Of a stretch of 64,000 nt of DNA, positions 400 to 28,675 are shown piece by piece. How positions within the stretch are numbered: the first letter of the stretch is position 1; each line of letters opens with the position of its first letter. A program made the translations under genes and the position numbers. The stretch lies in sequence record OL436245.1; one strand, given 5' to 3'. This DNA comes from Staphylococcus phage vB_SurM-PSU4. The notes below the pieces were generated by a model. It was not told where the DNA came from and did not search any database. It was given only the letters and a program-made list of their open reading frames with translations.

Positions 400-1716
400 T
401 TATTCCTCTTCTTCTTCTTCTTCTGTTTGTTCTTCTTCTGTTTGTTCTTCTTGATATTGTTCTTGAGATTGTTCTGTTTGTTGTTCTTGAGATTGTTCTG
501 TTTGTTGTTCTTGAGATTGTTCTGTTTGTTGTTCTTGAGATTGTTCTTTAATTGCAGGTTCTAAAGGTACCATTGGAATAACTTCATTAGGTATTACAGG
601 TTCTAAAGGTACCATAGGTTGTTCTTGAGATTGTTCTGTTTGTTGTTCTTGAGATTGTTCTGTTTGTTGTTCTTGAGATTGTTCTTTAATTGCAGGTTCT
701 AAAGGTACCATTGGAATAACTTCATTAGGTATTGCAGGTTCTAAAGGTACCATAGGTTGTTCTTGTACTTTATTAGAAGATTCTAAAGTTACATCAGGTT
801 TTCTATATGGTACATTATTGTCATCTTCAATAGGTTGTTGAGGTTCTATAGGAACAAAAGACTCTGGAACTGTTTGATTATCTGTAGTATCTTGAGGTAC
901 CGTAGGTTCTTCCACAGGGTCTTGAGGTTCTATTGGTGTGTTAGGAAGAATTGGTTGTTCTATAGGTTTTTCAGATAAATTAGGTTGTTGTACTTGAGGA
1001 ACTTCGGGTGTTATAGGTTGTTGTACTTCTGGTTGTGCTTGAGGAACTTGTGGTTGCTCTACAGATGTAACAGGAGGTGCTTCTCCTTGATTATTACCTT
1101 GTGGTGGAACAATTGGTTCATTTTGTACTTGATTTCCTACAGGGTTACTTTGAGTTGGTTCTGTAGGTGTTGTAGGTGTATTATTAACACTTTCTACAAT
1201 ATCCTGTTCAGAACTATTTAAATCTTTACTATCTCCTTGTATTCCTTCTATAACTTTTTCCTTATCTATCTTATCTAACATACCTTTAGGAACTTCTACT
1301 TTCCCTATTCCGTCATCCCCTTGCACAATTCTAGGTTTATCAATCTTACTATTCTCTTTAATATCTTTACTAATTAGAACTAAGTCATCATACTTAGAGG
1401 AACCTTCATTATATTTATCTAATTGCTTATTCTGTTCTTTGGTACTTAATTCATTAAAACCTTTATAATTTGTTTCCTTCTTAACCTTTTTGATTTCTTC
1501 TTTCGCTTGACTTAATTTCTTAGCATAATTCTCAGAAATTTTATCATCTTTCTTATCTTCTTCTTTATAAATTTCTATTGTTCTTTCTTTTTCTTGTATC
1601 TCGTTTTGATACTCTTTGACTTGTTGATAGAAGATAATGAAACCAATCATAATTAAGATGATAAAGAATATAAAAATATTTAAGATTAAACTTTTACCAC
1701 TCTCTTTATTTTTCAT
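400..1716 (-). CDS. Membrane-anchored repetitive Pro/Gln/Glu-rich protein (N-terminal TM helix, coiled-coil, long low-complexity C-terminal repeats)
   Basis: 438-aa ORF with an N-terminal hydrophobic segment (LILNIFIFFIILIMIGFIIF), a K/E-rich coiled-coil, and PQ-rich and EQSQEQQT tandem repeats ending in a poly-E tail. Confidence 0.6.
   Translation of the reverse strand: MKNKESGKSLILNIFIFFIILIMIGFIIFYQQVKEYQNEIQEKERTIEIYKEEDKKDDKISENYAKKLSQAKEEIKKVKKETNYKGFNELSTKEQNKQLDKYNEGSSKYDDLVLISKDIKENSKIDKPRIVQGDDGIGKVEVPKGMLDKIDKEKVIEGIQGDSKDLNSSEQDIVESVNNTPTTPTEPTQSNPVGNQVQNEPIVPPQGNNQGEAPPVTSVEQPQVPQAQPEVQQPITPEVPQVQQPNLSEKPIEQPILPNTPIEPQDPVEEPTVPQDTTDNQTVPESFVPIEPQQPIEDDNNVPYRKPDVTLESSNKVQEQPMVPLEPAIPNEVIPMVPLEPAIKEQSQEQQTEQSQEQQTEQSQEQPMVPLEPVIPNEVIPMVPLEPAIKEQSQEQQTEQSQEQQTEQSQEQQTEQSQEQYQEEQTEEEQTEEEEEEE
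430..780. repeat. Intragenic tandem DNA repeats (24-nt unit ttgttcttgagattgttctgtttg in several copies, plus a ~100-nt unit repeated twice)
   Basis: Direct repeats visible at 451-560 and 631-700 (24-mers). The longer unit at ~537-640 recurs at ~675-778. At protein level these encode the QTEQSQEQ and MVPLEPAIPNEVIP repeats. Confidence 0.7.
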
Positions 1717-2572: not shown

Positions 2573-2745
2573 AATAATAAATCTCCTTATTTTAGTTTTC
2601 TTTGTATATCTCTTAGTTTATATTCTATTTTCCCTTTTCTTTTAAGTTGTAATAGGTTTTTAAATAGAGTAACTAAAAAGATTAGTACAAAACCTATTAT
2701 ACACCCAAATAATATCAATGTCAACCGCCACCTAAATTTTTCCTT

Positions 2746-2777
2746 TATAAAAACCGTAAGCCTTAAACTTACGGTTT
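2746..2777 (-). terminator. Rho-independent terminator after terL (minus strand)
   Basis: Inverted repeat aaaccgtaag/cttacggttt followed on the minus strand by a T-rich tract (TTTTTATAAAGGAAAAATTT). Confidence 0.55.
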
Positions 2778-2781
2778 AGTT

Positions 2782-3546
2782 TTAATCATCTAAAAAGAAT
2801 TCGTTATTGTCTTCATAACTTGTGTTAATGAATACAGAATCAAATTCATTTTCATTATTTTTAATGTATAAGTCTTCTAGACGTGATAGACCAATTCTCG
2901 CATATATACTTGCTTGACTATAATGGTCATCACCTTTTCTCTTGATTACTTGATACATTTCTTCTGTCTTGCTATCTTCTTCATCTCTGATGACCACATT
3001 TTGCCAATGTTTAAGAAGTATAGCTTTATCATTATCATTTTCTTGGTAAATTCTTATTCTACCTGTTTTTAAATCTTGGATATAAATTTTGTTCTGCATC
3101 AATTTATCTACAGTAACAATATTTGAATTCTCGTTAAACACAGGTTTAATTTGTCCAGTAGATTTAGGAGATGATTTGTAAGTACAACCAAACACAATAT
3201 CTTCACCGAAGTATTGTTGGAGTCTTAGTAAGTTGTTTCCTGAATCTCCTGTATCTGCTACAATAATATCTGGGTTATACTTAGAAAATTCTACACGTAT
3301 TTTTTCTATATCCGATTCAACCATGTTAGGGTTTTTATTTCGTTTAACATTAAATAACCTAATGAGGTCTATCTTACCATCTTCAGTCATTCCATGAATT
3401 GTACAATAATGAATATTACCCCAATCCACTGATGCTGCGATAAATTTATAATCCCCTCTATTAAACATTTGTTTCTTAGCAATAGGAGATTGGTTGTTGT
3501 AAATATCTTCTTGTAATACTTTCATCTTCTGGTCTTCGTATGGAAA
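2782..3546 (-). CDS. terL: Terminase large subunit, last exon (C-terminal RNaseH-like nuclease domain); exon start approximate
   Basis: The translation carries the typical TerL nuclease motifs (FIAASVDWG, IVADTGDSG). The exon start at ~3546 is inferred by analogy to other intron 3' ends in this window (ggtagtaacg|tttcc). The ORF track lists 2782-3561 from a GTG start. Confidence 0.75.
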   Translation of the reverse strand, partial: FPYEDQKMKVLQEDIYNNQSPIAKKQMFNRGDYKFIAASVDWGNIHYCTIHGMTEDGKIDLIRLFNVKRNKNPNMVESDIEKIRVEFSKYNPDIIVADTGDSGNNLLRLQQYFGEDIVFGCTYKSSPKSTGQIKPVFNENSNIVTVDKLMQNKIYIQDLKTGRIRIYQENDNDKAILLKHWQNVVIRDEEDSKTEEMYQVIKRKGDDHYSQASIYARIGLSRLEDLYIKNNENEFDSVFINTSYEDNNEFFLDD

Positions 3547-4118
3547 CGTTACTACCGTCACTTTCGTGATATTTATATACGGACTAGACTATATCATATT
3601 CCTTATTTTTGACTAAGGAATCTCTACTTTACAGGTCGTTAACCTTCTCTTATAGTTCTACCTTACCTCATTTAGTAAGTTACCTATAAACTTAGTCGTT
3701 AGGCATTTATCTACTTTGTAGAATTTAGCAATTGATTGCCCTCATCTTTACATGTTAGGGGTTTCCAATTTTAGTAGAGTTATTCGATATACATTACTGT
3801 ATAAAGGGGCTATCCCGCTAACCCAGCGTGTAGTTGTAGAACAATTGAGTTGATTCAGTATTCATTTCTTTTTCTTTTAATTCACTAGCTGAAATCCAAC
3901 ATTTTTTTGTTACGATTGAGTTCGTTATTCTCAACCTTCTATATATCGCTATATAAGTTCAGACTATATCTTTACCTTATCAAATGAGACTTAGGTATCC
4001 TCTGTTTCGTGCTACTTAGCACTACTAATTAGTCGTTGCACGTTCTCTTATTACAAGAGCTTCGCTCATGATTATCTCTAATGAGAGACTTCCCATGAAT
4101 TAAAAGGACTTCACTCTA
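3547..4118 (-). mobile_element. ORF-less group I intron region in terL containing two P7-like cores; probably two introns flanking a cryptic ~100-nt micro-exon (~3821-3922)
   Basis: Two copies of the caacgacta...gatatagtct (P7 5'/3') motif pair are present. Between them, an open frame of 35 codons (NSIVTKKCWISASELKEKEMNTESTQLFYNYTLG) begins exactly at the predicted intron end. The same arrangement is seen in the tail-tube gene. Confidence 0.5.
3821..3922 (-). CDS. terL: Candidate terL micro-exon (cryptic, <60 aa, not in ORF track)
   Basis: The frame is open only in the exon-compatible phase. It is bounded by a ...gagaataacg intron-3'-like end and a gcccctttatacag intron-5'-like sequence. Inference only. 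Confidence 0.35.
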
Positions 4119-4499
4119 TACATTTCTATATAGAGGGGCTTGGTTAACCGCATTTAGCTGTGAAATAAAATAACCTCTTGTTCCTTTTCCACCTTTAGTT
4201 CTTTCAGGATACTTACAGTGCCATTCTCCGTTATACCATCTATCTAGAAGTTTACCACATTTTTGACAAACAAATTGGTAACTTCCTTCTTGCACTGTTT
4301 TAGCCATTTCGTCAACACCTTCAGGATTGACTAATAGGATATTTCCACTCTTCTCTAAGTTATCTGGGTCATAGTCTTCATAACTCATTTCATTTAAGTA
4401 ATCACAATGTGTACATCTATGACCATAATACCATTGGTCAGATTGCATATAGAGTTTATGAATTCCCATATTTGGAGTCGTCTTCAACATTACTATTTT
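4119..4499 (-). CDS. terL: Terminase large subunit exon (approximate boundaries)
   Basis: ORF 4116-4502 translates to ...YFISQLNAV..., lying between intron-like sequences. The putative upstream intron ends in ...gagatagtccattttattatg. Confidence 0.6.
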
Positions 4500-5691
4500 C
4501 ATAATAAAATGGACTATCTCATAATCCTTAGTTTTGGTTAAGGATTCTCTGCTTTACGATTTTATAAATAACTAAAAATAACTTCTTTTATTTCTTCATC
4601 TGTATAAGTATAGGGTATTCTTAATAAATCTATATTATTTTTTTCAGCATAATTATTTTTAATATTATCTCTTCTTTGTTGGTCTTTCAATTTTTTAGCC
4701 CCACCAAAAAATTCTACAGGTTTACTATGCTGAATTCCATCATATTCTATAAGAAGGTTTTTACTAGGAATATAAAAATCAAAAGGTAAGTATTTACCTC
4801 TAACTTTTAAATCTTCATATACTTTTTGTATTTCGTAAGTAACTTTATTATCTTTTAGAACTCTCTCTACTTTTCTCTCACCCTTAGATTGTTTACAAAA
4901 AGGACATCTATTACCATTTAAAAAATCTTTAGGTGTAACATAGTAATCAGAACCACAACCTTTATGATGAACAACAACATTTGACCTATTATTAATATAC
5001 TCAGATTTTAAAATAAATTCACCCTCACCTTTTTGTAATACCTCTTTTTTAAATTCCTCAGTAGTTTTTCTTCTATTACCAAAACAATAGGGGCATCTAT
5101 TACCTCTTAAGAAATCTTTAGGTGTCATATCAAAAATATTATCACATTTGAAATGTTTTATTTTTATCTTAGTAGTGCTTCTTCTATACTTTGTTAGTTG
5201 TTGATACTCTTCTTTTGCTATTTCTTTGAATTCTTTTTCAAAAATATAAGGATTTTTTCTTGTTGTGTTACATGAACATCTTCTATTATCATAGAAAAAA
5301 TGATTGGGTGTTGTTGTGAATATCTCACCACAATCAGTATGGAAAAAATCCATATTTACGTTACCTTTTATATATTCTGATTTAACCTTGTATTCTTCCC
5401 CTACTTTATTATACAATCTTTCTTTTATATCTTCTGTAGTTACTTTTTTAGTCATTTAAATCATCCTCTTATTAATATTTTATTCAATTATAACAAATAA
5501 ATATTAATAAGTCAATGATTATTTAAAATCTTTTATCTGATTCTACCTTACTCCTTTTAGTAAGTTACTCAGAAATTTAGTCTCTAGGCATTTACAAGTA
5601 TATAACTTGATTTAGCAATTGATTGTCTACAGCATTATCTGTTTAGAGTTTCCAATTTTAACAGAGTTTTTCAAAACAAATTACTTTGTTA
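4500..5691 (-). mobile_element. Group I intron in terL carrying a homing-endonuclease ORF
   Basis: The intron begins TAACAAAG right after exon ...CGTGGGGCT, giving an in-frame UAA. It has aattggaaac/gcaatcaattgctaaat family motifs and a 3' gagatagtcc core, and the 297-aa ORF sits inside. Confidence 0.65.
4562..5455 (-). CDS. Intron-encoded homing endonuclease, triple CxxC zinc-ribbon N-terminus plus Vsr/DUF559-like PD-(D/E)XK C-terminus
   Basis: The repeat C-x3-F-x3-P-x2-F-L-x-G-N-R-C-P-x-C occurs three times. The C-terminus reads LIEYDGIQH...FFGG...QQRRDNIKNNY...LLRIPYT and is shared with the ORFs at 6065-7048 and 27740-28675. Confidence 0.65.
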   Translation of the reverse strand: MTKKVTTEDIKERLYNKVGEEYKVKSEYIKGNVNMDFFHTDCGEIFTTTPNHFFYDNRRCSCNTTRKNPYIFEKEFKEIAKEEYQQLTKYRRSTTKIKIKHFKCDNIFDMTPKDFLRGNRCPYCFGNRRKTTEEFKKEVLQKGEGEFILKSEYINNRSNVVVHHKGCGSDYYVTPKDFLNGNRCPFCKQSKGERKVERVLKDNKVTYEIQKVYEDLKVRGKYLPFDFYIPSKNLLIEYDGIQHSKPVEFFGGAKKLKDQQRRDNIKNNYAEKNNIDLLRIPYTYTDEEIKEVIFSYL

Positions 5692-5997
5692 AGCCCCACG
5701 ATTTAACATAGGGGTACTCCAACGTCTTATAACCTTGAAAGGTGAACTTGACATTGATTCCATTGCTGATGATTCTGATGATGAAGGTACTCTATCATAT
5801 TCATCCAGTGACAAATAATCAATATCCACACCTTCTAAAGCTTTAGGTGTAGAACTTGTTCTAAAGAACATACTTGAATTTCTTATTTGTTTATATTTTA
5901 ATGAGTCATTATCTTGGTTAATGATGCTTGCAAAATAAGGTTGTTGCAATGTAGGGTTTATCCTACTTTGTACGAATTTCTGCATTTGGTCACTGGT
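5692..5997 (-). CDS. terL: Terminase large subunit exon (contains IDYLSLDEYD Walker-B-like motif); boundaries approximate
   Basis: ORF 5689-6000. A hhhhDE Walker B-like motif is followed by a Ser/Thr-rich segment. The exon is followed directly by an intron starting TAACAAAG. Confidence 0.6.
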
Positions 5998-7318
5998 CAT
6001 TTTTACCCCTAGTTTCCTAGTATTTAAAGGGATTAGACTATATCATAAGAATACATTTATATATTTAAATACGGACTGTATTCTTCTCTGCTTTACTTCC
6101 TAATAAGTATTTATCTTTTAAGTCTTCTAAGTAATTTATAAGTTTTATTCCTGCTATTGTGTAAGGTATTCTAATCATCTCAATGTTATTATCTTTAGCG
6201 TACTTATTTTTTATATCATCTCTTATTTGTTGCTTTTTGAAGGCTTCTAAACCTCCAAAATATTCTATAGGTTCATAATGTTGTTTCCCATCATATTCAA
6301 TAAAAAGCCCATTCTCACCATAATCAGGTATATAAAAATCAAACTTTAAAATGTTAATATATCTACAATCCTCAAATGATTTTTGAAACTCATATATTAT
6401 ACCTTCATCTTTTAAAAATCCCGCTATTATATCTTCGCCATTAGAAATACTACTACATTGAGGGCATCCTGTTAACCTTAAAACATGATTAGGTTCAGCT
6501 TTAAAAACACATTTACACTCATTACATTGGAAAGATGTTTTAGTATGAGTATTTACATAATCACCTATCAAACTTATTTTACCTTTGTGAAAATACTCTA
6601 ATTGTTCTTGAACAACATCTATCTTCTTACGTTGAGATTCTTTAACATTTTCTATGATACATTGAGGACATACATTCTTCCTTCTTTTACTTATCATATT
6701 TATAGGTGTATTATAAAAATAAAAATCATGTACATTACATTTTAATTTTATACTTTCCGAATATCCTGTATATTCACCAATAACAGAAATATTATTATTG
6801 TACTTTTTATTTATCTCATCTTTAAACGTATCTGTTGTTTTAATTCTTTTTTGATTATCACAATAATAACATCTACTATTTCCTGTTAGGAAATTATTTG
6901 GTTTTACAGACCATTCATTACCACAAATGTTATGTTTCATAAGTATTTTATCTCTAGTTCTTGTATACTTACCAATAACTGTGTATTCATTACCTACTAA
7001 ATCATATATTTCTCGTTCAAATTCTTCTTGTGTTTTCTTTTTAGACATTCTTATCCCCCTTTCTTATCTTTTTATACTTATTAGGTTTTCTTATACTATT
7101 TTCGTTATCTCCATTCAGATAACTATTAGTAAGTTTAGTCGTTAGACATTTATCCTAACATTACTATATCATATATAAATATAGTTGTCAAGAATTTAGT
7201 ACGGTAGGTTCCCACTATCTGTGTATAGTCAGAGTTAGGGTTTCTTACCAGTATATTGTTTATCTATACATTATTTTACTATGCCCGTTTAACAGAGTTT
7301 TAGTTCCCCACTCTGTTA
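5998..7318 (-). mobile_element. Group I intron in terL carrying a homing-endonuclease ORF
   Basis: The intron starts TAACAGAG directly after the exon codon ...ATGAAA. Its 3' end reads gatatagtctaatccctttaaatactaggaaactaggggtaaaaatg, and the 327-aa ORF sits inside. Confidence 0.65.
6065..7048 (-). CDS. Intron-encoded homing endonuclease (CxxC zinc-ribbon repeats plus Vsr/DUF559-like nuclease motif), paralog of 4562-5455
   Basis: Several CxxC/CPxC zinc-ribbon modules are followed by the C-terminus FIEYDGKQHYEPIEYFGG...QQIRDDIKNKY...MIRIPYT. Confidence 0.65.
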   Translation of the reverse strand: MSKKKTQEEFEREIYDLVGNEYTVIGKYTRTRDKILMKHNICGNEWSVKPNNFLTGNSRCYYCDNQKRIKTTDTFKDEINKKYNNNISVIGEYTGYSESIKLKCNVHDFYFYNTPINMISKRRKNVCPQCIIENVKESQRKKIDVVQEQLEYFHKGKISLIGDYVNTHTKTSFQCNECKCVFKAEPNHVLRLTGCPQCSSISNGEDIIAGFLKDEGIIYEFQKSFEDCRYINILKFDFYIPDYGENGLFIEYDGKQHYEPIEYFGGLEAFKKQQIRDDIKNKYAKDNNIEMIRIPYTIAGIKLINYLEDLKDKYLLGSKAEKNTVRI

Positions 7319-7473
7319 TTTCATAGGGAACGTGAACATACACTTGACAGAATCTTTACTATGTGTATCTGCAAAATGCAACATCTTATTGTATCCAACT
7401 TCACTTAATCCAAGTTGTCTCGATTTAAGTACTGCTATGTTAGGGTGTTTATCATTTATTATGGCAATCTGCC
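7319..7473 (-). CDS. terL: Candidate cryptic terL exon (~51 aa) with Walker-A-like SRQLGLS motif; not in ORF track
   Basis: The minus-strand translation is GQIAIINDKHPNIAVLKSRQLGLSEVGYNKMLHFADTHSKDSVKCMFTFPMK. It is flanked upstream by an intron 3'-end motif (...ctaggggtataaaacg) and downstream by TAACAGAG. SRQLG resembles the T4 gp17-type Walker A region. Confidence 0.45.
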
Positions 7474-7734
7474 CGTTTTATACCCCTAGTTTCCTAGTAT
7501 TTAAAGGGTTTGGACTATCTCATAGTTACTAATTTAGGTAAGTAACCCTCTTCTGTTACTTCTCTTAAAAAGAGCTTTCTTATACTGTTCTACACTCAAC
7601 CATTTATGAGCTTACCAGTAATTTTAGTCTCTAGGCATTTATGACTTATTAAGCCAATTTAGCAATTGATTGTCCTCGTCTTTACGTTAGGAGTTTCCAA
7701 TTTTAAGAAGAGTTTAAAGACCACAGCAAATTTA
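7474..7734 (-). mobile_element. ORF-less group I intron in terL (between exon 1 and the cryptic exon)
   Basis: It contains the same family motifs as the other terL introns (aattggaaactcctaacgtaaagacgaggacaatcaattgctaaatt ... gagatagtccaaaccctttaaatactaggaaactaggggtataaaacg). Confidence 0.5.
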
Positions 7735-7935
7735 TGGTCTATGAGCTTGAGCTTTACTTTTATCTCTATTTGGTATAGAAAAAGTAATATTATGCCCACG
7801 AATTAAATTGTGTTTCAACATATAAGCAGTAGTACTAGACATTGTTAATACATAATCTAATTGTTCTTGGGTAACATTTGTAGTTCCATATGTGGATATG
7901 AGTAAGTCTTTTAATTGTTTTCCATCCATTTTCAT
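7735..7935 (-). CDS. terL: Terminase large subunit, first exon (N-terminus); 3' boundary approximate
   Basis: The ATG at 7935 directly follows the stop of the upstream gene. The ORF closes at 7732 with TAA, and TAAATTTGC resembles the UAAC-type intron starts seen elsewhere in the gene. Confidence 0.5.
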
Positions 7936-7937
7936 AA

Positions 7938-8408
7938 TTAAAATGTCTCCGCATTTTGTTTATTCATAAGCTTCTCTTTTTCTGTAACCATTTCTGCTAC
8001 CTCATCGGCAGTCATTTCAGATAACTTATCTAAGTCCACATATTCATTTCCGTCTTCATCTACTTCACCTGTAGTTTCAACGAAGTTACTTAGTACAGCA
8101 CGTTCTTTTTCTCCTAATGCAGGTAGCGTACCCATACCACCTGAAGAGTTACCATTCATTTCACTAATTTGTCCGTACATGACTAATAATTTATAGATGT
8201 CGTTTGTGTCGTTTACATTGATTTCTCCACGCTCGACTTTATCTTCTAGTTTAATCATAAGTTTTTGTATGACACTTAAAAAACCATTGGATATAGCTTC
8301 ATTAGCATCTTCATTCTCTCGCTTTTTTTGCTTGAGTTGGTTTCTCATCGTATCTACTCTTGACTTCAAAAGTAAATCACTCCTCTTTCTTGTATTTATA
8401 ACAATCAC
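7938..8408 (-). CDS. Hypothetical acidic protein immediately upstream of terL (candidate terminase small subunit, unproven)
   Basis: 156-aa ORF with a basic N-terminus and acidic C-terminus. Only its position relative to terL suggests a packaging role. Confidence 0.4.
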   Translation of the reverse strand: MIVINTRKRSDLLLKSRVDTMRNQLKQKKRENEDANEAISNGFLSVIQKLMIKLEDKVERGEINVNDTNDIYKLLVMYGQISEMNGNSSGGMGTLPALGEKERAVLSNFVETTGEVDEDGNEYVDLDKLSEMTADEVAEMVTEKEKLMNKQNAETF

Positions 8409-26646: not shown

Positions 26647-26974
26647 ATGGCAAGTGAAGCTAAACAAAGTATTCACACTGGTAATACCGTCTATCTAATG
26701 GTTAAGGGTAAAATTGTAGGCAGAGCTCAATCAGCTTCAGGTACACGTGAATACGGTACTGAGGGCGTATATGAAATTGGTTCTATCATGCCACAAGAAC
26801 ACGTTTACCTTAGATACGAAGGTACAGTGACAATAGAAAGATTACGAATGAAAAAAGAAAACTTTGCAAAATTAGGATATGCTTCTTTAGGTGAAGAAAT
26901 CCTTAAAAAAGATGTTATCGATATTTTAGTTGTAGATAACTTAACTAAGAGTGTAATCATAGCGTATCATGGTT
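26647..26974 (+). CDS. Tail tube protein, exon 1
   Basis: MASEAKQSIHTGNTVYLMVKGKIVGRAQSASG... matches what I recall of the Twort-like tail tube. The unspliced ORF stops at 26985 after only 112 aa, and the exon is predicted to end at ...CATGGTT. Confidence 0.7.
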
Positions 26975-27275
26975 TAACTAAATAGACCCCTTGTACAGTG
27001 ATGTGCATTGAATAATACTTTAAATTGCTAGAACACCGTAAAGCTAACTTAACCACATAGGAATTGGAAACGATAAACTAGAAGGTCAGGAAACTAGAAA
27101 AAATAAGTTAGATGGTATATGGTTAAAACCTAAGTACTAATTAATCGGAAATTAGCATCGAAGCTCCTGTAAAATGGAGAACGTTCAACGACTATAATAA
27201 GTGAGTCTTAGTTACAATAAGATTATGGAATAGTCTAGTCCGTATATAAATATTGCGAAAGCAACGGTAGAATCG
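26975..27275 (+). mobile_element. ORF-less group I intron 1 in tail-tube gene
   Basis: It begins TAACTAAATAGACCCC like the terL introns. It contains gagaacgttcaacgactataa (P7 5') and ggaatagtctagtccgtatataaat (P7 3'), and ends ...ggtagaatcG. Exon 1 + exon 2 then read YHG-C-SANNY in frame. Confidence 0.65.
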
Positions 27276-27352
27276 GTTCAGCGAATAACTATGATGAAGA
27301 GATAAACACGAACGAAATGATAACTGAGAGCATAGAGTTTTCTTATCTTACA
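27276..27352 (+). CDS. Tail tube protein, micro-exon 2 (encodes CSANNYDEEINTNEMITESIEFSYLT)
   Basis: The frame is open only in the phase created by splicing from 26974. The peptide matches my recollection of the phage K tail tube C-terminal region. The exact 3' end is ambiguous within ~3 nt. Confidence 0.6.
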
Positions 27353-27616
27353 GCATTAAATTTCTAGTGCCCTTATACAGTAATGTATATTGAATAAATC
27401 CTCTAATTCAGGGAAACCCTAAACGAAATTAAGACGTAGGCAATCCTGAGCTAAGCCTGTAACATACAGGAAAGTGCAACGACTATCTCTACGGAGAGTA
27501 CGCTCAAGTGAGTGGAAATGGGGATTATCCTATAAAGTATAGGATAGTGATATAGTCTGGACATATATGGAAACATATAGAAGGTTAGGAGTAACGAACC
27601 TAATCGTAACACAATC
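27353..27616 (+). mobile_element. ORF-less group I intron 2 in tail-tube gene (or non-spliced 3' intron relic)
   Basis: gcccttatacagtaatgtatattgaataa...ggaaaccctaa...ggcaatc...gtgcaacgactat...gatatagtctgg is closely similar to the 3' half of terL intron 3. If spliced, the C-terminus becomes ...YLTADKAS*. If not, the protein ends ...YLTALNF* at 27367. Confidence 0.5.
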
Positions 27617-27634
27617 GCAGATAAAGCATCATAA
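27617..27634 (+). CDS. Tail tube protein, putative terminal mini-exon 3 (ADKAS-stop)
   Basis: gca gat aaa gca tca taa lies immediately upstream of a strong terminator. It matches the recalled K-like C-terminus ...SDKARQ. Inference. Confidence 0.4.
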   Translation, partial: ADKAS

Positions 27635-27739: not shown

Positions 27740-28675
27740 ATGAAACAAACAAACCAATTTACATTTAATAAAAAAGAAAGTCAGAAGATATGGGAAGAAT
27801 GGTGTATCAATCAGGGGTTAAAACCTTTAGTTACATATGAGAAATCTCAACAACCTTTTTATTTTGAATTTACTTCAGGTAAATTTAAAGGATTAGTAGG
27901 TAAAACATATTGGGCTAGTATAAAAAGAGGTTCAATAATGAGATTGAGTTGCTTAACAGAAGAGAGTAAAAATAAATATATTAAAGAATTAGGTAAAAGT
28001 AAAGGAATAGAAATTATAGAAGACTATAAAGGAGGTAGAAAAATAAAGCATAAGTTTATTTCAATAGATGGAAAATACAAAGGGTGTGAGGGACAAGTAA
28101 CCTTAAATGACTTAGAGAATATGAAATCTATAGATAATAGAAGTTTAACAATTAAAGGTAAAAAACAATATTTTGATTATAAAGCGAAACAAAGAGATTG
28201 TACAATACTAGAATATCCAGAAAATTATAATATAAAAACCAATGAAAAACTAATAGTAGAAGATAACAAAGGATTAAAACATGAGATAATAGTCCAAGAC
28301 TTTTTTGAGAAAAACTCTATATTAGAAGTTTCAAATTTTAGTGAAGGAGAAAAAATAGTTAAAGAAATACTTATAGAAAGAGGTATTGATTTTATCAAAG
28401 AGAAAGGATTTAAAAATAGTAAAGGTATAACACAGAGGTTTGACTTTTATATAGAATTAGGAGAAGAATTATTTGTAATAGAGTATAATGGTTCACAACA
28501 TTATAAAAAAGCAACGGGATACTTTAAAGATACATTAGAAAAAACTCAAAAAAGAGATGAGTTGAAAAGAGAATATTGTAAAAGAAATAATATATATCTT
28601 TTGGAAATACCTTATACTATTAAAGATAAAGAAAGTATAGACAAAGAGATAAAAGAATTTTTAGACCTAGATTAA
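27740..28675 (+). CDS. Free-standing homing endonuclease (zinc-ribbon repeats plus Vsr/DUF559-like nuclease motif), paralog of the two terL intron ORFs
   Basis: 311-aa protein with the C-terminus FVIEYNGSQHYKKATGYF...QKRDELKREYC...YLLEIPYT, very similar to the C-termini of 4562-5455 and 6065-7048. It has its own promoter and terminator. Confidence 0.65.
   Translation: MKQTNQFTFNKKESQKIWEEWCINQGLKPLVTYEKSQQPFYFEFTSGKFKGLVGKTYWASIKRGSIMRLSCLTEESKNKYIKELGKSKGIEIIEDYKGGRKIKHKFISIDGKYKGCEGQVTLNDLENMKSIDNRSLTIKGKKQYFDYKAKQRDCTILEYPENYNIKTNEKLIVEDNKGLKHEIIVQDFFEKNSILEVSNFSEGEKIVKEILIERGIDFIKEKGFKNSKGITQRFDFYIELGEELFVIEYNGSQHYKKATGYFKDTLEKTQKRDELKREYCKRNNIYLLEIPYTIKDKESIDKEIKEFLDLD

Follow-up and report, generated by a model that had tools for sequence, protein, structure and literature searches.

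How can a phage obtain an intact large terminase subunit from a gene that is broken into pieces? This question is raised by terL, the gene for that subunit, in Staphylococcus phage vB_SurM-PSU4 (OL436245.1), of which we analysed a stretch of 64,000 nucleotides (nt), here called the window. Four open reading frame (ORF) fragments with TerL similarity lie on its minus strand at 7732–7935, 5689–6000, 4116–4502 and 2782–3561, and two long ORFs lie in between. An original prediction, made from the sequence alone, had noticed the four fragments, which are indeed present, and had proposed six exons separated by five related group I introns. The DNA of the window is approximately 95% identical to that of Baoshanvirus phages (Herelleviridae, Twortvirinae), namely Golestan101-M, RSM-J51Sa, phiSA_BS1, phiSA_BS2 and JDF86 (phiSA_BS1 and phiSA_BS2 are abbreviated below to BS1 and BS2), and in the terL region no phage-collection record covers more than 44%. 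Based on collinearity with intron-less relatives, Rfam searches, covariation and checks of the splice-site helix P1 and the terminal G, the proposal of six exons and five introns is upheld: the terL of this Baoshanvirus-like Staphylococcus myovirus is very probably interrupted by five mobile phage group I introns of the IA2 type.

Exon structure of terL

The gene extends on the minus strand from 7935 to 2782, and its six exons of 202, 149, 288, 335, 79 and 765 nt are split by five introns (I1 to I5). Once joined, the exons form a frame of 1818 nt with zero internal stops, which encodes 605 amino acids (aa) followed by a stop codon; the length of 620–630 aa expected earlier was too high. This product can be matched at every residue to the TerL of Kayvirus S25-4, which is likewise 605 aa long but encoded without introns, with 67% identity to the Kayvirus protein over residues 3–605, and it scores 78.9 bits against the GpA_ATPase family (Pfam PF05876; cut-off, 25.6). 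In tblastn searches with the TerL pieces of JDF86, BS1 and BS2 and the uninterrupted TerL of S25-4, six collinear segments span every TerL residue. Two of these segments are short exons that ORF calling misses, and the same searches show both to be coding: the segment at 7471–7325 was found with E values of 1e-15 to 9e-29, and the segment at 3898–3821 is 100% identical to JDF86 and BS2. The co-linear alignment to intron-less TerL anticipated for the mini-exons thus holds, and for S25-4 it covers all residues.

Exon 1 (7734–7935, 202 nt) encodes residues 1–67 and the first base of the W68 codon, is 98–100% identical to residues 1–67 of JDF86 and BS1, and ends in a U that pairs with G in P1. Exon 2 (7325–7473, 149 nt; residues 68–117), the first mini-exon, carries the P-loop-like motif KSRQLGLSE and is collinear with residues 69–117 of JDF86 (94%, E 9e-29) and 67–115 of S25-4; its frame contains no ORF of at least 25 aa with a start codon. 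It had been placed at about 7319–7473, of which the start at 7473 stands, while the end lies at 7325. Exon 3 (5710–5997, 288 nt; residues 118–213) includes the Walker-B-like motif DYLSLDEYD and is 69% identical to residues 116–211 of S25-4; its junction was refined against Golestan101, which is intron-less there. Exon 4 (4147–4481, 335 nt; residues 214–325) is 84% identical to residues 212–323 of S25-4. Exon 5, the second mini-exon (WISASELKEKEMNTESTQLFYNYTLG; residues 325–351), is 100% identical to the uninterrupted sequence of JDF86 and BS2. It is real but occupies 3821–3899 (79 nt), not the approximately 102 nt at about 3821–3922 that had been assigned to it. Finally, exon 6 (2782–3546, 765 nt including the stop; residues 352–605) encodes the nuclease half and is 95–97% identical to JDF86, BS1 and BS2, and its junction GGT/TTT matches the intron-less GGa/TTc.

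For each of the five intron sites, the coding sequence runs on unbroken in one or more relatives whose TerL proteins are 92–99% identical, and these intron-less alleles fix the junctions. Each junction was refined against a relative without that intron, and the remaining ambiguity of one base was settled by the rule that a U precedes the intron and a G ends it.

The intervening sequences as group I introns

Judged from sequence, all five intervening segments belong to the group I introns, with an IA2-type core, and they fall into three sub-types. Type A comprises I1 (7474–7733, 260 nt, no ORF, IA2-like), I3 (4482–5709, 1228 nt, with a homing-endonuclease gene in the P7.2 region) and I5 (3547–3820, 274 nt, no ORF), which share 75–78% identity over 98–154 nt of core. 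Type B is I2 (5998–7324, 1327 nt, with a homing-endonuclease gene inside), whose 3'-most 48 nt are 92% identical to I1, with no further sharing. Type C is I4 (3900–4146, 247 nt, no ORF), which is more distant from I1, I3 and I5 and has its nearest match in a tail-tube gene intron. All five lie on the minus strand. The single intron family proposed at first is thus a set of relatives with more internal division than had been assumed.

Searches with the Rfam group I model RF00028 (gathering threshold, 50 bits) were run on short stretches. I4 scored 90.8 bits (E 6e-23) and aligned to the whole model, and I5 scored 48.8 bits (E 2e-10), slightly below the threshold. I1, searched alone, gave a full-length model match at 35.4 bits (E 1e-7), and the 5' half of I3 scored 26.9 bits. 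The model is broken in I2 and I3 by the long ORF inserts. The 5' half of I2 had no RF00028 match, and the case for I2 therefore rests on covariation among its homologues. The Rfam check suggested along with the original prediction accordingly brings out I4 clearly and leaves the others below the threshold or unmatched.

For type A, seven introns of the I1, I3 and I5 type from the window and its relatives were aligned, including natural ORF-less copies of I3 (265 nt), and a structure was drawn by hand with the standard group I helices P2–P9, the P3/P7 pseudoknot and the IA-specific P7.1 and P7.2. In this structure, 91% of the cells are paired, compared with 32–42% when the partners are slid, and 36 of the 59 pairs show compensatory changes. 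The two P7.1 helices are 100% paired, with nine of ten pairs compensated, while P7.2 is variable (61% paired). For I2, the ORF was removed from five homologues, and P3, P5, P7, P7.1, P8 and P9 are 98.7% paired in this alignment (34–48% when slid), with compensation at 25 of 47 pairs; P3, for example, reads CUCUG/CAGAG in some homologues and CCUUG/CAAGG in others.

A P1 helix can be drawn for all five introns, with the last exon base, a U, opposite a G. The numbers of exon and intron base pairs are 7+1, 7+2, 4+3, 3+1 and 4+2 for I1 to I5, respectively. P1 consists of AGACCAU/UGUGGUCU in I1, GUUCCCU/GGGGAAC with the U·G at the splice site in I2, CCCU/GGGG in I3 and GGGU+UA/UAGCCC in I5, and each guide sequence matches solely its own upstream exon. 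Moreover, a terminal G is found in all five introns, at the sole position compatible with the intron-less alleles. The first bases of the introns are AAAUUU, AUGAAA, AUGUUA, UAACCA and UAGCGG, so the claim that every intron begins with UAAC fails. The accompanying idea that unspliced RNA soon meets a stop is borne out: in-frame stops lie 0, 2, 6, 10 and 0 codons past the 5' splice sites of I1 to I5, and these stops are the real basis of the earlier UAA observation.

The homing-endonuclease genes of I2 (6065–7048, minus strand, 327 aa; phrog_559, E 3e-78) and I3 (4562–5455, minus strand, 297 aa; phrog_559, E 2e-86) are paralogues with 34% identity, and homologues of the intron ORFs at 57–61% identity are present in Bacillus phages. 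The I2 ORF contains a Pfam DUF4379 zinc finger, and approximately its last 10 codons extend into P3' and the 5' strand of P8. The I3 ORF is placed in the P7.2 region exactly where relatives have a short loop, and its product is 100% identical to UGL60517.1 of Staphylococcus phage vB_SurM-PSU4. An AlphaFold model of the I3 endonuclease (pLDDT 90.5) consists of three N-terminal repeats and a C-terminal domain, for which the best PDB matches are the Vsr endonuclease structures 1cw0 and 1vsr (probability 1.00; TM 0.54–0.57 on the target). As regards candidate active-site residues, a comparison with 50 homologues shows no variation at E237, G240, H243, D263 or K266, and D239 is kept in 90% or more of them. 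The Pfam scan found DUF4379 and CapR only and no HNH family, so the PHROG label "HNH endonuclease" is unsupported and serves as a name only. The model thus indicates that the intron endonucleases carry a Vsr-like nuclease domain rather than an HNH domain. A Vsr-type fold has also been noted for the PHROG 559 cluster, which occurs in terL introns of Bastillevirinae (PMC11878797).

Based on these features, terL would be transcribed as a single precursor of approximately 5.15 kb, in which each intron would fold as its own ribozyme. The guide sequence would pair with the last 3–7 bases of the upstream exon and place the U·G at the splice site. Guanosine would attack at this site, and the freed exon end would then attack past the terminal G of the intron. 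Five such events would yield the 1818-nt mRNA and the 605-aa terminase, while the stops 0–10 codons into each intron may keep ribosomes off the unspliced cores. The paralogous endonucleases of I2 and I3, with their three zinc-finger-like repeats and Vsr-like domain, presumably cut intron-less terL in mixed infection; repair would copy the intron with flanking exon, and probably nearby ORF-less introns too. The name vB_SurM-PSU4 suggests a phage isolated in culture; if it is one, its terL must be expressed.

Several observations weigh against this explanation. The splicing, the endonuclease activity and its target sites are all predicted from DNA. The one-base ambiguity at each junction is resolved solely by the U/G rule. 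The curated Rfam threshold is passed by I4 only, and the missing match for the 5' half of I2 counts here as well. The P1 helices of I4 and I3 are short, with three and four exon base pairs, respectively. Furthermore, the covariation sets are small (seven and five sequences), and the structure of I2 was drawn partly from the very alignment that scores it, which inflates its pairing score. With regard to the endonucleases, the E values of the Vsr fold match are weak (0.015–0.023), and a sequence search of the PDB found no relative. Finally, some Herelleviridae introns splice in vivo and not in vitro (PMC11878797), so the term "self-splicing" may fail for some of the five.

This last point leads to the alternative that survives best, which we regard as possible but doubtful: all five would be group I introns, and some of them, most likely I2 or the short-P1 introns I3 and I4, would not be autonomous. 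Splicing that depends on a host or phage factor, is slow or follows a fixed order would then limit or time TerL production, and exon-skipped dead ends would form. Precedents exist in Bastillevirinae, where some terL and polymerase introns are spliced only in vivo and exon skipping affects the TerL of SIOphi (PMC11878797), and the low Rfam scores of I1 and I3, together with the null for I2, point in the same direction. Because of the exon phases (1/0 and 2/0), skipping of exon 2 or exon 5 shifts the frame, and mis-pairing between neighbouring ribozymes would therefore be costly. In contrast, the core helices are well kept through compensatory changes, each guide fits only its own upstream exon, and the sequence gives no sign of a maturase, since both ORFs resemble DNA endonucleases. 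This alternative is compatible with five mobile IA2-type introns in terL.

terL alleles, insertion sites and mobility

Eight further Baoshanvirus-like terL alleles were reassembled by ungapped, position-locked junction finding, and all eight give 1818 nt and 605 aa, with a U before and a G ending every intron. The presence and absence of introns differ widely among the alleles. In the window, the junctions lie after coding sequence (CDS) nt 202, 351, 639, 974 and 1053. RSM-J51Sa also has five introns (after nt 202, 268, 639, 886 and 1053), as does Golestan101-M (202, 268, 898, 974 and 1053). Two IMG/VR contigs have even more, namely six in UViG_3300010165_000001 (L019; 202, 268, 346, 542, 1053 and 1674) and seven in UViG_3300020227_000045 (L018; 218, 268, 346, 525, 546, 639 and 974). 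Four introns are found in an ENA metagenome contig (L012; 351, 525, 546 and 639), three each in BS1 (546, 639 and 886) and BS2 (346, 546 and 639), and two in JDF86 (546 and 639). Together, the nine alleles, including that of the window, have 14 distinct insertion sites.

These alleles bear on the view that terL is a decaying, fragmented gene, whose pieces are translated separately or never and whose remainder consists of endonuclease cassettes and junk, as in genes split by free-standing endonucleases. The public annotations of relatives do list separate "terminase large subunit" CDS fragments, and the four fragments of the window are ORFs, one of which starts with GTG. However, a usable start codon is missing from exons 2 and 5, which are nevertheless 94–100% conserved, every intervening sequence holds a conserved ribozyme core, and nine independent alleles each reassemble to 1818 nt under the same U/G rule. 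Moreover, the sequence matches a named phage record, and TerL is essential. Decay is therefore very improbable. Slightly less probable still is a gene with fewer, larger introns in which the mini-exons are not exons and a lone intron or a twintron would span, for example, 7733–5998 or 4146–3547. In line with this view, the mini-exons measure just 149 and 79 nt, and the intron ends on either side of them resemble each other. However, the loss of exon 2 would delete the P-loop-like KSRQLG, the loss of exon 5 would delete 26 conserved residues, and both losses would shift the frame. In relatives, the mini-exon segments are fused to their neighbours in uninterrupted DNA, and each flanking intron has a complete core, a P1 and a terminal G. 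An intein or other splicing at the protein level is ruled out by the in-frame stops and ribozyme cores in the intervening sequences.

The mobility of the five introns is suggested by their distribution and by the flanking exon sequences. I1 is 97% identical in Golestan101 and RSM-J51Sa and is absent from BS1, JDF86 and BS2. ORF-less 265-nt versions of I3, 94–99% identical, occupy the same site in BS1, JDF86, BS2 and RSM-J51Sa. The same-site copy of I4 in Golestan101 is 99.6% identical, and RSM-J51Sa has I5 in a 1279-nt form into which an ORF is inserted. When 30-nt windows of the spliced CDS were compared, alleles with the same intron were usually identical to the window at 29–30 of the 30 positions around the site, while intron-less alleles usually matched at 18–26, through synonymous changes. 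At the I4 site, for instance, the two intron-bearing alleles match at 30 of 30 positions and five intron-less alleles at 18–20. The rule is not absolute, as the intron-less L012 allele matches at 29 of 30 around nt 974, the I4 site. At the I2 and I5 sites, intron-less alleles have an A where intron-bearing alleles have the splice-site U. This pattern of flank co-variation is as expected from endonuclease-driven homing with co-conversion and target-site divergence.

Furthermore, near-identical intron cores recur at other sites with other guide sequences. A core 84–85% identical to that of I4 lies after CDS nt 886 in BS1 (2518–2721) and RSM-J51Sa (5842–6044) with a different 5' guide region, which looks like the relocation of an intron through a changed guide sequence. 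A core like that of I1 is found in Twort 11 nt downstream of the I1 site. In addition, the I3 copies of JDF86 (2762–3026) and BS2 (4262–4526) carry the P2 hairpin of I5 (compare 5640–5709 in the window), which suggests that introns from separate sites within one gene have recombined.

The densest allele is that of L018 (6726–10516), with seven ORF-less introns of 246–351 nt between exons of 218, 50, 78, 179, 21, 93, 335 and 844 nt. Its 21-nt exon (ATTGATTATTTGTCACTGGAT) encodes IDYLSLD, a Walker-B-like motif, and the guides of the two flanking introns each form 6 bp with their own upstream exon. In L019 (7537–12098), CDS nt 1674 is followed by a 1330-nt intron, large enough for an ORF, towards the 3' end of the gene; among the alleles examined, this is the only one to use that site. 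The intron after CDS nt 346, found in BS2 (about 6080–6366, minus strand), L018 (7690–7998) and L019 (8410–8703), agrees with the rule of a preceding U and a terminal G only if residue 116 is Tyr (FTYPT) and not the conserved Phe; keeping Phe116 would require the intron to end in C or A. The terL of vB_Q1 (2604–4459), annotated as five abutting or overlapping CDS, was considered as a six-piece gene and rejected, as its fragments abut or overlap like frameshift breaks. These breaks look like frameshift errors in the record and not like introns; the single true intron, with an ORF, is at the I1 site.

A bolder proposal, which we put forward tentatively and consider rather unlikely, is that the terL of Baoshanvirus-like phages is the most intron-dense protein-coding gene of any bacterial virus, with 14 sites, up to seven introns and exons down to 21 nt, and that this load is not neutral. 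If so, endonuclease-bearing introns that drag ORF-less neighbours along would be weapons in mixed infections, through marker exclusion or interference; alternatively, the need for several splicing steps would control when terminase is made or limit its amount.

Related systems, annotation and other features of the window

What is new in this gene is the intron density; as a kind of element, mobile IA2 introns that come with homing endonucleases are well known from conserved phage genes. The introns of T4 td, nrdB and nrdD belong to IA2. They resemble the terL introns in their P7.1 and P7.2 and in the in-frame stops shortly past the 5' splice site; their endonuclease ORFs likewise lie in peripheral loops, and their homing co-converts the flanks. 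Unlike the terL introns, they occur one per gene, in genes of nucleotide metabolism, and have GIY-YIG or HNH endonucleases. The terL of Twort (NC_007021) has three introns, near aa 70/71, 89/90 and approximately 299, and a second exon of about 18 aa that carries KSRQLG; one of its introns is 74% identical to I1. Its introns are fewer, however, and their sites overlap only partly, none being exactly at a window site. To our knowledge, this three-intron structure of Twort terL is unpublished as such.

A single terL intron, encoding I-MsaI, is known from the Kayvirus phages MSA6, fRuSau02 and Team1 (PMC5618024). It lies in the same gene at a position that appears equivalent to that of I1, given that Ter.1 has 65 aa and I1 follows residue 67 of a protein two residues longer. 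In contrast to that intron, I1 has no ORF, differs in core sub-type and is one of five introns in its gene. In Bastillevirinae, two or three group I introns interrupt terL in a few genomes, with small internal exons, exon skipping in the case of SIOphi and experimentally shown splicing (PMC11878797). Some of them share with I2 and I3 the endonuclease cluster PHROG 559 and its Vsr-like fold. They differ from the window in their Bacillus hosts, in the reported maximum of three introns per gene and in the experimental demonstration of splicing, which in the window is deduced from sequence. The original prediction had compared the five terL introns with the three of Twort orf142. These three introns (Landthaler & Shub 1999, as cited in PMC5618024) do give a case of several IA2-type introns in one late structural gene within Twortvirinae, with related cores, short internal exons and an endonuclease ORF in one intron. 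However, orf142 encodes the tail tube protein (PMC11878797) and was thus the wrong gene for the comparison; the terL of Twort itself has the three introns described above.

The five terL introns of the window thus exceed the three per phage gene found in the searchable literature, as had been claimed. They are not unique in sequence databases, where relatives with five, six and seven introns exist, so that the allele described here stands beside others of this density. No paper on Baoshanvirus terL introns or on vB_SurM-PSU4 was found in our literature search, and the intron structures of the alleles compared here are neither annotated in the database records consulted nor discussed in the literature found. 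The scale differs accordingly: one to three terL introns have been described in that literature, while five correct splicings are needed here and six or seven in relatives. These phages offer a natural test system for how several ribozymes that resemble one another fold and find their correct partners in a single transcript, for how ORF-less introns spread beside endonuclease-bearing neighbours, and for how introns reach new sites through guide-sequence change alone.

The tail-tube gene of the window, the homologue of Twort orf142 (26647–27634, plus strand), also contains group I introns, two in number and both ORF-less, compared with three in Twort. Intron 1 (26975–27275, 301 nt) scores 33.2 bits and intron 2 (27357–27617, 261 nt) 95.5 bits against RF00028, and the exons of 328, 81 and 17 nt encode 141 aa once spliced. 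Added to the five of terL, these introns bring the window to at least seven group I introns. Directly downstream of the tail-tube gene, a free-standing endonuclease gene (27740–28675, plus strand, 311 aa) resembles the terL intron ORFs, with 26% identity to that of I3. The same arrangement of tail-tube gene and free-standing endonuclease has been reported in Kayvirus 812 (PMC6445280).

The introns are easily overlooked in annotation. An Rfam cmscan of the full 64-kb window, with gathering and E-value settings, reported no group I intron. This null is an effect of filtering and not of absence, because I4 scores 90.8 bits when the same sequence is searched within 6 kb; tail-tube intron 2 likewise reaches its score in a search of a few kb. 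The speed filters lose these introns in the AT-rich sequence of the window, and routine annotation would therefore miss all seven. In the annotations of the relatives Golestan101-M and BS1, terL is broken by gene calling into "hypothetical" fragments, and the mini-exons are absent. Correct annotation is needed, as therapeutic use is under discussion for several of these phages.

Elsewhere in the window, no tRNAs were found, and a match to the S808 sRNA (27.7 bits; threshold, 76) was taken as chance. The small terminase gene (7938–8408, minus strand; phrog_1063, E 2e-41) lies directly upstream of terL. Downstream of terL, an ORF at 400–1716 (minus strand) encodes 438 aa rich in Pro, Gln and Glu, with long internal repeats (…PMVPLEPAIKEQSQEQQTEQSQEQ…) and a poly-Glu tail; at the corresponding position in BS2 and Golestan101, a gene is annotated as "tenebrin".

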